64,000 bases of DNA from Pseudovirgaria hyperparasitica. Taxonomy: Eukaryota. Positions within the stretch are counted from its first letter, which is position 1; every line of letters starts with the position of its first letter. Below, piece by piece: positions 19,396-24,489 of the stretch. The stretch lies in the NCBI GenBank assembly GCA_010093815.1, contig ML996577.1. One strand, given 5' to 3'. The translations under genes and the position numbers were made by a program. Under the pieces are notes generated by a model that saw nothing but the letters and a program-made list of their open reading frames with translations, ran no database searches and had not been told where the DNA came from.

Positions 19396-20693
19396 GGATC
19401 GTAATGGCAGGGACGGATTAAACCAATGTCGACCTAGGAACCAACGATCCCTTATGATTTGGTAACTAGAGTATATATCGATCCTGCGGTAGTAGACATA
19501 TTTCACGACAATTCATTCCATTACCTCTTCTTGGGAACTGACCAAGTGAGTAACAAGTGTTGGTGGCTCAAACCATGCCACCTCGATCACACTGGGGAAC
19601 GGCATATCCTGGTATGCATGTTTGCTCCTTTAGTTGTCGATGGTGATCCTTTGCATTAGGCCGTGTCTTGCTTAAATGTTCGATTGCGACCTAAGTGTGA
19701 ACGAGAAGTAACGACAGTCGTTTAAATTGTCCTAAACCGGACTAGCAGCTAGACTGCTCAGTTACCACATTCCTCTAGACTCTCTCTCTCTCTTGTGGTA
19801 CGTCTTGTAACAACGATTATATATTGGATCTACCATCGTATGAATCGCAAAAGCGCGATCACCACAACAAGAAACCCAACAACCTAATGATCTCCTGACA
19901 GTGCCCCTGACCATGTTATGCACATATATTCTAAATAGACAAGCAGGCAGAGCGGACAGTAAGAGTGGAGATTATGTATGTACATATCTATGTATATACA
20001 ACTGCGCGTCTAATCGCACGAGCGAGGACTGCGGCCCCGTACTAGTACTGCGCCATCTTCAATCTATACATGTATGCATGCATGCGAATATCTAACGCCG
20101 AACAAACCATGCCGCAAGGGTCGAGATGCCGCAGCCATATCTCCCGTACCTCTATTATGGCCATACTTATCTTTTAAAATAAAACATACTATCGCCGAAA
20201 CGTTACCTGTCGAGACCCGGAAGACCCCCGGACCTCGCCAAATTTCCCGATGCGGTATAGCTCTCTTCTCCCCACTGCGCGCGGGCCCCCGGTCTTGCCG
20301 GGACTGGGGAGCAGGATGAATCATAGCACACTAGTCCCAAGATAGAGATGATTTACGTCTTGGCGCTATGAATCATTCTGATGGTGCCCCGCTTTGAGAG
20401 ACGCTAGGAGGGGTCTGACGTTCCGGACCAGAGTATCAGAACTTGAGAGCGAAATCGTGGAATGAAAGAGGGCATGGTGGTAGACGTGATTCAGAATGAG
20501 ACTGGATTTGTCGATGTATATAGAAATGTAAGTATATGTAGCATCTGATGATTGTACATATGATGTAGTATATCGACTAGGCAAATATCGGGGCGCTGGA
20601 TGTGTACATATCACGAACATACAACATAACAGGTGTAGTGAGTTGTACATGTATATTGTATATTTTGGTAGTTTTCACGATGCTATAGACCCC

Positions 20694-21183
20694 TTAGCCC
20701 TTGCGACCAATGACCTCTCTAAGTGTCTTGTTCTCGCTGTCTTTGCGCGCAAGTTCCACCTTCAAGTCATCCCGCTCGCGCTGCATGGCGGCCAGCTGCT
20801 CCTCAAGCTCGGTGATGCGGTCGATGCGCTTCTGGCGGTACTTGCGCGCCGCGATATTGTTGCGCTCGCGCTTGACGATGAGATCCGGGGATACCTTGGT
20901 GCTCTTAGCGCGAGTTCCGGATGGGGTTGAGTGGCTGGTGGACACGGATGCTTGCGGGTCGGGCGGTGGTGAAGCCTCTTTGGACGAGGCGGACATTGAC
21001 CAAGAGAGGGCTTGGCTGTTGAAGTTTAACGGGTCCGATACGGGAAGTTGAGGAAGAGAGGCGTCGGAAGCTGACGTGACTGGGTGGAACATGGTGGATT
21101 GGGCTATGGACCGTTAGTGGTAAGTTATATATTGAGACGAAAGGCAACGTACGCATATGCCCCGTCCAGTCAGCTGGTGGCAT
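20694..21183 (-). CDS. bZIP transcription factor, JlbA/IDI-4-like; AUG-based model complement(join(20694..21103,21153..21183)); the true N-terminus may extend toward 21678
   Basis: Basic region KRERNNIAARKYRQKRIDRITELE plus leucine zipper. A 49-nt intron (GTACGT..CTAAC..TAG) joins the two ORF-track frames in phase. Confidence 0.85.
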
Positions 21184-21287
21184 AAACGAATCAAGATTAA
21201 AGTCAAAGAAATTGTTTGATTGCTGAGAAGTAGTGGTAAAGTCGAAAGTGTCGCTCAAGGCAAGATCGTTGTTGACGTTCTCGGGGC

Positions 21288-21598
21288 TTAAGGAAAGGGG
21301 CGAAGTATTGACAGAGCTGTTGGGTGGCGTAAGGAATGAAGATGTAGCAGTAGCAAAGCCCAGACCAATGTCATCAAAAGCACAGCTTTGAAGAGCGTCG
21401 GCTGGAGGAAGAGTAGAGACAAGCGAGGCGGTAAGAGGATTTACAAGGTCGTAAGCTTCGTGTTCGGAGCCTAGTACATTCGATGACTCCCAGGACGAAC
21501 TATGGTGGTTCGGTTCGTGCTCTTGTCTGGTGTGGCTGGAAGTATGGTCGTGCCAGCATGCTGGCTGGGTACTCTCCTGATGTTCGTTGGGTCTCCAT
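21288..21598 (-). promoter_or_regulatory. Three upstream ORFs in the bZIP leader: 21598..21500 (32 aa), 21479..21471 (MY*), 21374..21288 (28 aa)
   Basis: Manual translation of the minus strand. All three are out of frame with the bZIP CDS and lie downstream of a TATA-like TTAAAAAG near 21770. Confidence 0.6.
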
Positions 21599-22309
21599 TC
21601 CGATATGTTAGATGGCCTCTGAGTGAGGCCGGACTGTAAATTCTCGAATTCTAAAGGTGAAATAGATCCGGCCGCGGCCTACGTCTTGGCCGCGAGGGCT
21701 CAAAGGGTTTGAAGGGGGTAAAGGTTGTGGTTGAAGAAAGGGTCAGGACGTGTGGGAGCGGTTGGCTTTTTAAGTGTTGGTAGATCCATCCATGCACGTA
21801 AGCGGCCTGAGGCGTGTCACTGCCTGAATAGCTTGACCAATCAAATGACGTTAGTGTTCGGCGGGGCCAAGAATGCGCCTTTGCTTTCGCTGAATACAAC
21901 CTTATGCTGCGCCTTACCGCGGTTCGCTATCGAAGTGTACCATGAACATAAAGGGGGTTTGGAGTAAAACGATGTCAACACCGAGGAGTTGGGTACGAGA
22001 TGAAGACGTAGTGTGAACAATGTCGCTGTCAAAATGTCTCAAAAGAATTGGCAAGCGACCTCGACCTGGGTCGCTCTTCATTATCAGCTTTCATGTGTGT
22101 AGATTATTCTTGCCCTCGTCGTACGTGAGTTCATGCGTGATATCATTTTTTTACTGTGTTCAAGCATCCTACACTGTCATACTAGCATTCTTCTAGCTTG
22201 CCCGCTCAAACGGAGTCAGACATGACTGTCGTATAGCGCTACTCCATGACAACGATGTCTTTCAGGCCAATTAAATTGTGCCATCAAGCAGTGAGTCCTT
22301 GAGAGCGTC

Positions 22310-22660
22310 TCACGCTACCATAGCCTCCATCTCCTTCGCAGAGACATTTTCTTTCACGCTCTTGACTGCATCCAGAGAGACCTTGTCGTAGCAATGTGGA
22401 AACAATTGTCCTCCTCTGCTCTCTTCCCATCTGATATCGTCAACCTTTGCAAGGTCCACTTCCACAAGTACAGTGCCTGTTGCGTTCTTGAAGTATTTTT
22501 CGAACGTGTCGACAGCTTGCTGTCGGGTAGACATGTGAATATATCCATCTCCTTTATCAAGCGGTGTAGTAGCCGTGGTCAGGGCGCCTAGATCACGGAA
22601 GGAATGCCATTGCTCGGTTGTAAGGAGCTTATAGGCTGTTTGGGGGTGTTCGGACGGCAT
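22310..22660 (-). CDS. DUF952 family protein
   Basis: AYKLLT..W, DKGDGYIHMST..Q and IRWEESRGGQLFPHCY match the family pattern. Intronless, 116 aa. Confidence 0.88.
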   Translation of the reverse strand: MPSEHPQTAYKLLTTEQWHSFRDLGALTTATTPLDKGDGYIHMSTRQQAVDTFEKYFKNATGTVLVEVDLAKVDDIRWEESRGGQLFPHCYDKVSLDAVKSVKENVSAKEMEAMVA

Positions 22661-24489
22661 GATATTGTTCAGTCTGGGGTGAGGTGGACGAAGCGCGTTC
22701 AGAGCCAGAAGAGACAGAAAACTAGAGGAAATGAGTGCCTGAATTTATGCCTGGCCTAATCTAGCGCCATATGCAACATTCTCTTCAGAACTTTGTCAAT
22801 TAATTTTTCCATCATATAGATAGATCCTGTGGAAGCCAGCAGCAAACTACTCGCCTGTGTTGCGATTTTGGCTATCGTGCGTATCGTGATGTGTTGGCAT
22901 CGAAGTCTCTTTCGCCTGAAACTCAACCATCAGGGAGGTAATTTGGCTCTGCGATCTCCATTGTGTGGATATATGATGGTCAGGTACTATGACTTATGGA
23001 TATCAGGAGCCTGTTCCGGCTCTGTGGCTCAGGAATTGCAGCTTATGTGATCGAGGCTTCTAACCTCCGCATTTCAGAGCGCTGTTGCACAGCCAGTGAA
23101 TGGGCCCCCAATCCGGTCGAATGAAATGCCTCTCAAGCATCAGTATATGTGGCCCTTAACATTTGTATCTCATGCCTAATACTTCGCATGATGAAACTAC
23201 ACTTTTTACTAACACGGCCACTACAGTCTCATATGGGCTGCTTCTCTATTAGTTCTTCCCTCTCTTTCACTCCGCCATCCGGATCATTTCAATGTAAAAG
23301 GTGTGATTCTACTTGCACTTTCTGTTCCAGTCCTGTCAATGCCACGCAATGAAGCGATGATTCTGGCAATAGCGCTGGCTAGCCGGAGTAATATATACGA
23401 TGTCTTTTACTACAGTAGTCGCTTTATAAGATTCAATGAGAGCTTCCTAAGCAAGAAAAATCTACAGAATAGACTATATAAATCATCAAGGTCACTCTCT
23501 CTTCTCTCTTCGTTTTCAGATTCGACCCTCTTACTATAAAGTTGAAAACATATCTCAGAGCTTACAAGTTATGAAGATCTAATGATTTCAATCTATTCGA
23601 TATCTCTACGTAGAAATTAAGAGAATGAGAATGTGTGCAGCATGATGCCTAAAATAAGTGCCAAGAGTGACGGCTGTTTCAAAACGGACAGATCCGGATG
23701 CCTGACGCCAATTGATCCATGGATTAACCTGACGCCTCTTCCGATAGATCTCGCCACGACTTCGACGCGTCTCTTTCTAATCAGCTTCATCCCATCAAAA
23801 CGATATCTCTACAACTACTTGTTTTCACTTACTGCGGCACCGGAGGTCCACTAAGCGCTTGCACAAACCCAACCTGAGTTGATTGTCTTTGAAATGTCGT
23901 GTTTCAGCCCTGCTTTACGCCTTATCTTCCAATTTCAGGCGAAGTTATGCCATGGATCATTCAATCTGCGGTTCCTGATTATAATCAACTCGACCCATGA
24001 ATTTAGCCTCATCAAATGCAGTCATGCGGCGTCTTTCAGCGGCTATGTTGGCTCTGCAGTTGAGCGGCCATAACCCGGCATTTCGGCCATGTACCAACTC
24101 CTGCGCCACATGTTTACACGCTCAACGTTTATTTTTGTAATCCTGATCTGGTAAGTATTCGCCGCAAGCAAGCTTGCGCGAGCCCCTGGTCGAGTTCGTG
24201 CTTCAAATGAATACACTCATGTTTAGATTACAACATGATCAGGCTGAGACTTGCTCGAGACATACATTCGAGCTGCATCCGGAATGAAGCAGCGTCTAAA
24301 TTTACCACTATATGGAAGTTAAATAGAACGAGCTATCAAGATGCGATCGCTATCTTCCAAGAGACGCATTCTCCGTTGCGTTGCTCACAAGCTCCTTCTA
24401 TCCTTTCTTTCTCTTGAACGATATCACCTTTTGTCCTCTCTGGATGTGACACGACTCATATTCCACTATATTATCACTTTATTTTCATA

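Follow-up and report, generated by a model that had tools for sequence, protein, structure and literature searches.

A CUG start codon has been proposed for the fungal bZIP factors IDI-4 of Podospora anserina and ZIP-1 of Neurospora (Ivanov et al. 2017, PMC5487733), and a further published passage ascribes a 'poor CUG start codon' to ZIP-1 (NCU08055) (Castillo et al. 2022, PMC10241597). The non-AUG start of idi-4, to which the initial annotation of the present locus had pointed, is thus in print. According to the passages on Neurospora crassa cpc-1, position-conserved near-cognate codons switch identity between branches of that gene, AUA included (PMC5487733). The Discussion of the same paper also considers the LAP and LIP isoforms of C/EBP alpha and beta, which are produced from alternative starts around a short uORF (PMC5487733). 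In the published outline of START, or structure-assisted non-AUG initiation, a hairpin lies downstream of a weak start (PMC11165317).

Here we describe a bZIP gene on the minus strand of a 64-kb window, by which we mean the whole 64,000-nucleotide stretch of Pseudovirgaria hyperparasitica DNA that was analysed. Like IDI-4 and ZIP-1, this gene encodes a fungal bZIP protein with no usable AUG before its N-terminal region, and it contains a near-cognate codon that is conserved in position and whose use as a start we infer. Unlike those two genes, the window has AUA rather than CUG at the homologous position, a codon that also occurs there in the related loci L001 and L008/L010. A hairpin is not mentioned in the passages of the two papers that deal with IDI-4 and ZIP-1. 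The locus resembles cpc-1 in encoding a bZIP protein, in having uORFs in a long leader, in the overlap of its extension with a uORF and in a near-cognate codon kept in position. In contrast to the window gene, cpc-1 probably belongs to a different family, has an annotated AUG form with an activation domain of its own and contains several near-cognate codons, and the passages on it in PMC5487733 describe neither a hairpin nor an AUG placed 8 nt from a near-cognate codon. The initial annotation had stated that the leader mirrors the non-AUG extension of cpc-1. This parallel holds for the mechanism and probably not for orthology; the nearest relatives of our gene are a separate bZIP set and its leader module differs from the layout given in PMC5487733. 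A literature search of titles and the starts of abstracts for idi-4, jlbA, zip-1 and NCU08055 identified no report of a uORF or hairpin in the IDI-4 family beyond Ivanov 2017, and a search for FGSG_07863 found none either. Both the hairpin and the AUA form of the putative start are possibly undescribed so far.

The bZIP gene and its transcript

The gene consists of two exons, and the following features define its 3′ part and the transcript:

20715..20876, minus strand: bZIP domain, composed of a basic region and a leucine zipper, residues 76-129 of P0001
20694..21103, minus strand: exon 2, including the stop codon at 20696-20694
21104..21152, minus strand: intron of 49 nt (GTACGT..CTAAC..TAG, a GT..AG intron), skipped exactly by contigs in both runs
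21181..21183, minus strand: first in-frame AUG, in the weak context uuuAUGc, which would begin a 146-aa short form
20643-21662 (X1) and 20688-21662 (X2), minus strand: spliced transcript contigs, one per run

Residues 76-129 of P0001 matched Pfam bZIP_1 with 27.7 bits (cut-off 27.6) and bZIP_2 with 26.5 bits (cut-off 22.3). The C-terminal basic region, which is followed by the leucine zipper, contains 16 invariant columns common to 41 relatives. Sordariomycete bZIPs were the nearest database relatives (41 matches, with generic names), the best protein match being P0004 with 72% identity, and the bZIP clusters in the atlas also carried generic bZIP names only. The best explanation of the gene's identity, given the label in the initial annotation and the leader architecture in common, is that it encodes an IDI-4/ZIP-1/JlbA-type fungal bZIP factor. 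As the annotation had anticipated, the AUG-only product would be little more than a bZIP domain, as most of its 146 aa are bZIP. Position −3 relative to its AUG at 21183 is T, and position +4 is C.

The intron at 21152-21104 is the only one in the bZIP gene. Both contigs join 21103 to 21153 and then continue from 21153 to 21662 without another joint, difference or indel. Because they skip the intron and cover the leader continuously, the leader is unspliced within a spliced transcript, and thus no upstream AUG exon is joined in up to 21662. X1 and X2 are derived from one sample of one study whose run kind is unrecorded, and their shared end at 21662 is no evidence of a transcription start. The in-frame stop at 21681 falls outside the part that the contigs cover.

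The open AUG-less frame and the uORFs

Upstream of AUG 21183 the leader contains the following elements:

21184..21603, minus strand: AUG-less N-terminal extension, 140 codons following AUA, periodic and acidic/hydrophobic in 21471-21184
21604..21606, minus strand: AUA in the bZIP frame, proposed non-AUG start, context aacAUAu with A at −3
21614..21630, minus strand: conserved leader hairpin with a 6-bp stem (GGCCUC/GAGGCC) and a 5-nt loop, 7 nt before AUA
21500..21598, minus strand: uORF1, 32 codons in another frame, AUG 21598 with G at −3 and +4, stop at 21502-21500
21471..21479, minus strand: uORF2, AUG-UAC-UAG, in weak context
21288..21374, minus strand: uORF3, 28 codons within the extension, beginning at the out-of-frame AUG 21374, whose context is weak (T at −3)

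We confirmed that the bZIP frame is open on the minus strand from the stop codon TAG at 21681-21679 to the ATG at 21183-21181, with 165 sense codons (21678-21184) and no AUG among them. The main frame of the leader has 0 stops, whereas the other two frames have 5 and 7. Simulations under a first-order Markov model (50,000 each) gave a probability of 0.0028-0.0039 for an open frame and of 0.0008-0.0009 for a frame both open and free of ATG. Base composition in 21471-21184 was periodic by codon position in the manner of coding sequence (chi-square p = 6e-6), and the share of third-position pyrimidines was 0.82 and 0.79 in the two halves of this segment, as opposed to 0.43-0.52 upstream. The codon log-likelihood of the main frame ran at +5 to +12 per 30 codons from ~21530 onward, similar to the bZIP exon, while it was negative in nearly all windows of the other two frames. 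No periodicity was found in the first 45 codons after AUA 21606, which is expected from the overlap with uORF1, yet untranslated sequence would look alike. Residues 46-141 of the extension comprise 12 D/E, 0 K/R and 27 bulky hydrophobic residues. The label activation-domain-like, given to the extension in the initial annotation, is one of composition.

All four in-frame near-cognate codons named in the initial annotation were found: ATT 21663, ATA 21606, CTG 21363 (G at −3 and +4) and TTG 21258. The first of these lies one base past the last contig-covered base. Further in-frame near-cognate codons are AGG 21618, ATT 21369 and ACG 21330, whereas the stretch from 21605 to 21370 is free of them.

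The AUG of uORF1 is the only one in the leader with a strong context. Its peptide contains the family motif YFQPHQ at residue 19 and ends in ..EPP. Of the 847 small ATG ORFs of the window, only uORF1, which has two nested starts, and one further ORF contained the relaxed motif. A profile HMM of 15 relatives' uORF peptides scored uORF1 at 2.3 bits, within the background of these 847 ORFs, and the putative kinship of uORF1 with the relatives' uORFs rests on the short motif, the register, the length and the position. The AUG of uORF3 probably arises incidentally from the codons TTT GAT G (Phe-Asp-Asp); ttgATG in the matching frame was also present in L002, L005, L008 and L013. A CTG 8 nt ahead of AUG 21374 was considered as a counterpart of the family CUG and rejected, as it is outside the bZIP frame.

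A leader module in related loci

The relatives used for comparison were 36 fungal loci from metagenomes, none of them close to the window's own species. In 27 of the 36, a GC-rich hairpin (core GGCCUC/GAGGCC) precedes a near-cognate codon that is in frame with the bZIP region. The codon at this position was GTG in 12 loci, CTG in 7, TTG in 3, ATA in 3 and ATC in 2, and a codon that is not near-cognate was seen in none of the 27. Many relatives also have an out-of-frame AUG 8 nt past the near-cognate codon, which opens a uORF of ~32 codons with a common peptide motif; the motif lies 56-65 nt after the start codon, and in ten lineages the uORF stop lies 101-107 nt after it. The window has the same arrangement. 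Its AUA 21606, the positional counterpart of the CUG, UUG, GUG, AUC or AUA of the 27 loci, lies shortly downstream of a GC-rich hairpin, 7 nt past its end, and 8 nt ahead of the uORF1 AUG at 21598, which opens 32 codons with the motif [FY][FY]xPx[QR] (YFQPHQ) near residue 19. The three ATA loci belong to two lineages (L001; L008/L010), and the frame that follows is open for 162-170 codons. The module was absent from nine loci, of which five are cut at the 5′ end, one (L014) has an AUG start and three (L020-L022) have neither the module nor a Met.

The spacer between the hairpin and the near-cognate codon is 7-15 nt in the relatives, mostly 7-10 nt. The window hairpin has a predicted free energy of −11.8 kcal/mol, and 1 of 200 shuffled sequences folded equally well. 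Covariance model R2 had a single match in the 64-kb window, at the hairpin (21630-21614); no Rfam family matched within 21100-21800 at E ≤ 1. In MAFFT alignments A2 and A3 the 5′ hairpin arms were out of register, so we used covariance-model alignments, which lean towards structure. A block in the clade L023-L036, GGCCTCG-TATAAA-CGAGGCC, was considered as a TATA box; this reading was dropped because all other clades have the identical stem with different loops.

From the near-cognate codon to the bZIP region, the frame is open in 21 of the 27 loci and interrupted in 6, probably by an intron; for L010 this is proven by its spliced twin, L008. Ten loci have an in-frame stop only 1-14 codons before the near-cognate codon (L002, L005, L007, L008, L009, L013, L019, L023, L025 and L031), which bounds the position of the start in these loci. 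Three loci (L019, L030 and L035) contain no Met at all before the leucine zipper.

In two clades, the AUG-less extension changes in the manner of coding sequence. L002 and L005 differ at 8/4/22 sites in codon positions 1/2/3, L023 and L027 at 18/10/33 and L024 and L028 at 21/12/44, and none of these pairs had a frame-0 stop. Codon-level conservation, which the initial annotation had put forward as a check, was thus seen among relatives in three pairs from two clades, as an excess of third-position changes and a lack of stops, but the 36-codon extension piece compared between L007 and L009 had no third-position excess. At the amino acid level the extension in the window does not significantly resemble relatives. 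Against their open frames and proteins, phmmer scored it at 7.3 bits at best, whereas 50 shuffles reached 11.5; an HMM of 27 relatives' N-terminal regions gave 1.8 bits, with 58 of 500 shuffles scoring at least as high. The 175-aa translation of exon 1 had no match among proteins of 308-2000 aa or of 96-307 aa, and a HMMER scan of 1.84 billion representatives returned 2 matches, both repetitive animal-type proteins that we judged spurious.

Start-site choice and its implications

Initiator tRNA probably begins a full-length product of 287 aa at the near-cognate AUA 21606, the likeliest start because the window carries every part of the module: the hairpin, the AUA and the uORF1 AUG. The earlier proposal that the N-terminal extension is a candidate for non-AUG initiation is likewise supported by the open frame, its periodicity, the contigs and the module of the relatives. 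It is unlikely that the extension is instead translated from CUG 21363 or AUU 21369 by ribosomes that arrive through leaky scanning or that reinitiate once past uORF1 and uORF2. Such a start would yield a product of ~206 aa and could coexist with the AUA start. By identity and context together CUG 21363, with G at −3 and +4, is the best near-cognate codon of the leader (AUU 21369 also has G at both positions), and its location beyond uORF1 and uORF2 suits a reinitiation target. However, the 34 codons upstream of it (21471-21370) are equally periodic (third-position pyrimidines 0.82, p = 0.0006), and the out-of-frame AUG 21374 sits 11 nt ahead of it. Coding-type periodicity begins ~100 nt upstream of CUG 21363 and UUG 21258, and neither codon has a positional counterpart in relatives. 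Among the four candidates of the initial annotation the comparison with relatives singled out AUA 21606.

Exclusive use of AUG 21183, with the 146-aa form as the sole product and the upstream frame as an ancestral coding relic or a chance occurrence in a uORF-regulated leader, would be the most economical annotation, and numerous database models for relatives begin at the first AUG (77-150 aa). AUA is also a weaker start codon than CUG in reporter studies; Wei 2013 reportedly compared the start strength of the two in Neurospora. The extension, moreover, has no detected amino acid homology. We nevertheless regard this reading as quite unlikely: the probability of the open frame by chance is ~0.003 and its periodicity has p = 6e-6, the context of AUG 21183 is weak, most relatives likewise have an AUG-less frame, which in two clades evolves like coding sequence, and the three loci without a Met before the zipper would have no such start. 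The 146-aa form would also miss the acidic/hydrophobic region. It is very unlikely that a long protein begins at the uORF1 AUG 21598 and enters the bZIP frame through programmed frameshifting or a minor alternative splice, even though this AUG is the sole strong start in the leader, the Xylariaceae database protein P0017 opens with the uORF peptide fused to main-frame sequence, and frame-restoring GT..AG pairs 37 and 73 nt apart can be read by eye inside uORF1. Against it, neither run has a contig with a joint in the leader, and no slippery site was seen. The potential 5′ splice site (GTACCC) is poor, as is the branch region, and a fungal intron has to be longer than 37 nt. An in-frame near-cognate codon that is conserved 8 nt ahead of uORF1 is a simpler account.

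With initiation at AUA 21606, 43S complexes would scan the leader, which the transcript contains from at least 21662 onward, and unwind the conserved hairpin (21630-21614). Of these complexes, a minority would initiate at AUA 21606 (A at −3), 7 nt past the hairpin, and these ribosomes would pass through the uORF1 overlap, the acidic/hydrophobic N-terminal region and finally the bZIP domain. The majority would skip the AUA, start 8 nt further on at the strong-context uORF1 AUG and be diverted, and some of these may reinitiate at the weak AUG 21183 to give the 146-aa form, which is mostly bZIP. The use of AUA 21606, the ratio of the two products and the roles of the hairpin and uORF peptide are read here from the anatomy of the leader.

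A tentative and rather doubtful extension of this model is that the hairpin, the near-cognate codon, the 8-nt spacer, the AUG and the conserved-peptide uORF constitute one ancient translational switch of IDI-4-type mRNAs in the Pezizomycotina. Such a switch would set the ratio of the full-length activator to a truncated, mostly bZIP form or to no product. The uORF peptide would stall ribosomes, forming a queue that extends back to the near-cognate codon, and the hairpin, which would refold only after the scanning complex had reached the AUG, could serve either as a back-stop or as a gate that depends on a helicase. The clade of the window would run this switch with AUA, which is among the weaker start codons.

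This arrangement is similar to that of C/EBP, where a weak upstream start leads to the long activator and reinitiation after a short ORF leads to a truncated DNA-binding form. The two differ in that the short form of the window is only a possible product, and L019, L030 and L035 lack an internal AUG. The uCC of AZIN1 operates by ribosome queuing. As in START and AZIN1, RNA structure or a stalling conserved-peptide uORF may tune the use of a near-cognate codon, stalling and queuing being hypothetical here. Unlike START, in which the hairpin is ~14 nt downstream of the start, the hairpin is upstream and ends 7-10 nt before the start in most loci.

Gene callers that accept only AUG reduce this IDI-4-type family to little beyond the DNA-binding domain (models of 77-150 aa), and one database model fuses the uORF peptide to the bZIP protein. 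As a result of AUG-truncated models, functional studies of IDI-4/JlbA-type regulators of stress and cell death may be working with an incorrect protein. The leader also offers a small natural system for studying how start codons are chosen, in which a near-cognate codon and a strong AUG, 8 nt apart, compete right behind a conserved hairpin. In evolution the near-cognate codon was replaced five ways while its position was kept. If AUA is truly used, a weak start codon can persist over the long term with its position set by the RNA around it.

The AUG-less frame of the bZIP gene and its transcript

The bZIP gene lies on the minus strand, and its second exon scored 27.7 bits against Pfam bZIP_1 (cut-off 27.6) and 26.5 bits against bZIP_2 (cut-off 22.3). 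The initial annotation had proposed non-AUG initiation within a 165-codon ATG-free frame upstream of the first in-frame ATG. We confirmed this frame on the sequence, and its coordinates and near-cognate codons were all correct.

Structure of the bZIP gene
21681-21679, minus strand: in-frame TAG bounding the open frame (165 ATG-free codons down to ATG 21183)
21183, minus strand: first in-frame ATG; the AUG-only product has 146 residues
21153, minus strand: 3′ end of exon 1
21152-21104, minus strand: 49-nt intron (5′ splice site GTACGT, branch sequence CTAAC, 3′ end TAG)
21103 to stop codon 20696-20694, minus strand: exon 2

The leader contained no stop in the bZIP frame, and five and seven stops in the other two frames. 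First-order Markov simulations (50,000 trials each) using the composition of either the leader or the promoter yielded equally long open frames in 0.28% and 0.39% of cases, and ones that were also ATG-free in 0.08-0.09%. Contigs from two runs (kind not on record) of one sample connected 21103 to 21153, omitting exactly the intron, and then covered 21153-21662 with no further joint, difference or indel. Thus, the leader with all of its upstream ORFs (uORFs) is part of the spliced transcript, and in the transcript form represented by these contigs no upstream AUG-bearing exon is spliced to it. Because both contigs came from one sample, their shared end at 21662 does not fix the mRNA start. Separate contigs from the same runs at 22147/22185-22400, opposite in orientation to the bZIP contigs and separated from them by ~480 nt without cover, probably belong to a neighbouring minus-strand ORF (22310-22744).

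Base composition varied strongly by codon position in 21471-21184 (chi-square p = 6e-6), with third-position pyrimidines at 82% and 79% in its two halves; the three segments of 21678-21472 had 43-52% and no periodicity. A codon log-likelihood trained on the window's long ORFs was positive in the bZIP frame from ~21530 onward, reaching the level of the bZIP exon (+5 to +12 per 30 codons), and was negative in nearly all scoring windows of the other frames. The non-periodic first ~35 codons after the ATA at 21606 would be explained by overlap with uORF1, the frame of which carries a conserved peptide motif. The 96 residues of the periodic part include 12 Asp/Glu, no Lys/Arg and 27 bulky hydrophobic residues. 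The initial description of the extension as activation-domain-like is one of this acidic and hydrophobic composition, which would fit an acidic activation region.

AUG-less frames in related genes

With exon 2 as query we found 41 fungal bZIPs, chiefly from Xylariales plus Fusarium FGSG_07863, with 72% identity for the best match and 39-64% for named genomes. Protein searches with the extension alone found no annotated protein. Several ORFs from transcript-like contigs (P0011, P0021, P0029 and P0042) were open at the 5′ end and Met-free for >100 residues. JGI metagenome contigs were then scanned with an alignment of the relatives' proteins, yielding 46 loci. Of these, L001-L036 are fungal loci encoding a bZIP of the window type, and L037-L046, encoding a different, animal-like bZIP, were left out. 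Most relatives had a long AUG-less open frame upstream of the first Met.

AUG-less codons upstream of the first Met
L002, 113; L005, 110
L008, 163; L013, 147; L016, 107; L018, 99
Six loci of clade L023-L034, ~146-150

L019, L030 and L035 lacked any Met before the zipper. In many loci the start is bounded by an in-frame stop 1-14 codons upstream of the near-cognate codon. L010 retains a 112-nt GTGAGT..TAG intron (651-762) missing from the otherwise near-identical L008, indicating that L008 is its spliced form, that some metagenome contigs are cDNA-like, and that one sample set holds this gene both unspliced (or genomic) and spliced.

Among database models, P0033, P0036, P0039 and P0040 have only 77-82 aa, versus 222 aa for the 5′-open P0029, whose frame extends 154 residues further N-terminally than the initial Met of its close relative P0039. 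In this family, taking the first AUG as the start has left many database models with little more than a bZIP domain. In P0017, from a Xylariaceae species, the N-terminus is the conserved uORF peptide (~24 residues; compare L001:2228-2320) fused to the main bZIP frame. Gene prediction seems to have introduced a spurious intron so that the protein could begin with AUG; the fusion is apparently an annotation artefact to which the non-AUG start gave rise.

We compared the AUG-less parts of related loci by codon position. L002 and L005 differed at 8/4/22 first, second and third positions (16 synonymous and 11 non-synonymous codon changes), resembling the 10/8/19 found downstream of the AUG. The values were 18/10/33 for L023 and L027, and 21/12/44 for L024 and L028. 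Substitutions in these three pairs are therefore concentrated at third positions of the bZIP frame. This frame was stop-free in all three; the other frames each had several stops in the latter two pairs, and frame 1 was stop-free in the L002/L005 piece. L007 and L009 differed at 7/10/5 positions across just 36 codons.

The window extension had no significant amino-acid similarity to the N-terminal region of any relative. An out-of-frame ttgATG recurred in the same relative frame within the extension (window 21374, minus strand; L002:284, L005:285, L008:392 and L013:253). It arises from the codons TTT GAT G (Phe-Asp-Asp/Ala), a hint that N-terminal regions that otherwise do not align share a Phe-Asp motif. 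By eye, we had the impression of a recurrent Phe-Asp-Asp/Ala motif in these same five sequences, and of an acidic/hydrophobic stretch that, in several relatives, spans a conserved Met-(Ile/Val/Pro)-Pro.

A hairpin, a near-cognate codon and a uORF in the leader

For each locus we tabulated small ATG ORFs with the codon 8 nt upstream and inspected the flanks. A recurring arrangement began with a GC-rich hairpin whose arms are usually GGCCUC and GAGGCC and whose 3-9-nt loop is unconserved. A near-cognate codon, in frame with the bZIP ORF, followed 7-15 nt downstream (7-10 nt in most loci).

Near-cognate codon at the conserved position
CTG: L003, L007, L009, L012, L013, L015, L018
TTG: L002, L005, L016
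GTG: L019, L031 and ten loci of clade L023-L036
ATC: L006, L025
ATA: L001, L008, L010

Most loci outside clade L023-L036 also had an out-of-frame ATG 8 nt after this codon, opening a uORF of exactly 32 codons in seven lineages, with the motif [FY][FY]xP[STC][QR] at about residue 19 and often a C-terminal ..(E/K/G)P(T/P). In that clade and L031 the first AUG came 43-46 nt after the GTG and opened a mere 3-10 codons. The hairpin and near-cognate codon were present in 27 of the 36 fungal loci, with only the 3′ arm in L009, where the contig begins. Of the nine loci without the module, five are cut inside the ORF (L004, L011, L017, L026 and L029) and L014 has an AUG start. The related loci L020-L022 encode a window-type bZIP in a Met-free open frame of 181-187 codons, and hairpin, near-cognate codon and uORF are all missing there; their start may lie in an upstream exon or depend on another mechanism. 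The window contains every element.

Module elements in the window
21630-21614, minus strand: hairpin, 7-nt spacer to ATA
21606, minus strand: near-cognate codon ATA, A at -3
21598, minus strand: ATG of uORF1, G at -3 and +4
uORF1, minus strand: 32 codons, YFQPHQ at residue 19, C-terminal ..EPP

The score of uORF1 against an HMM built from uORF peptides of the relatives was within background, and the relaxed motif occurred in uORF1 and one other of the window's 847 small ORFs. The six-residue motif, register, length and position would make uORF1 a relative of these uORFs.

Folded singly, 16 of 16 hairpins gave the expected stem (-11.3 to -18.2 kcal/mol; z-scores -1.95 to -5.7), and the window hairpin dominated the centroid fold of the leader's first 103 nt. 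A covariance model, seeded with four sequences and then rebuilt from eleven hits, matched the module once in the 64-kb window and in 23 loci at E ≤ 0.5, weakly (E ~0.2) in clade L023-L036. Rfam had no match at the window leader. In the model-fitted alignment, which is biased towards structure and includes four rows that are reverse-strand or secondary matches, 95.4% of cells paired, versus 90.6% in shuffles (0/500 as high) and at most 51% with the partners slid. In the same alignment, two-sided changes occurred in 3 of 7 pairs (1/500 shuffles), and the covariation score was 0.085 versus 0.017 (0/500).

Covariation was thin because the core stem is nearly invariant, and the hairpin sequence could instead be a sequence-specific binding site. 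The clearest compensations were GGGCUC/GAGCCC in L018 and GCCGUC/GACGGC in L008/L010, with an extra pair in L025 and an outer pair that is C-G or A-U. The few sense-strand G-U pairs (L002 and L018) favour RNA structure over DNA structure. In clade L023-L036 (e.g. L023:1120-1139) the element, with UAUAAA as its loop, is GGCCUCG-UAUAAA-CGAGGCC in ten of ten loci. It resembles a TATA box, but its stem is that of the hairpin in other clades; it might also serve as a promoter element.

Start codon, mechanism and known systems

It is likely that the extension is translated from some non-AUG codon. The analysis supports the initial reading and narrows it to AUA 21606, the positional counterpart of the family's near-cognate codon; judged from sequence, translation of the full-length protein from this AUA would be the simplest account, one that we somewhat favour. 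The loci with the greatest similarity to Xylariales proteins, L001 and L008/L010, likewise have ATA here, and their frame stays open for 162-170 codons past it; this argues that AUA is a maintained state rather than a recent loss.

Most scanning complexes would probably bypass the AUA and initiate at the strong uORF1 AUG, after which they may be released or may reinitiate at uORF2 (21471-21479), uORF3 (21288-21374) or the weak AUG 21183, the last of which would yield the 146-aa form. Spacers of 7 and 15 nt separate the 3′ end of the hairpin from the AUA and the uORF1 AUG, respectively, so the structure must be at least partly melted when the AUA occupies the P site. It could refold with a complex on the uORF1 AUG; gate, back-stop and recruiter are candidate roles.

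Non-AUG initiation in this bZIP family is already in print as a proposal. A CUG start is proposed for Podospora anserina IDI-4 and for Neurospora crassa ZIP-1 (Ivanov 2017, PMC5487733; Castillo 2022, PMC10241597), whereas the window has AUA 21606 at the corresponding position. Ivanov 2017 (PMC5487733) describes for cpc-1 a near-cognate codon conserved in position and varying in identity by branch, AUA included, as in the relatives of the window gene. Our literature search, which did not extend to the original 2004 paper, found no description of a hairpin or uORF in idi-4, jlbA or zip-1 leaders. Three features may be new: the AUA variant in the window's clade, the conserved upstream hairpin, and the replacement of one near-cognate codon by another, five in all, at a fixed position.
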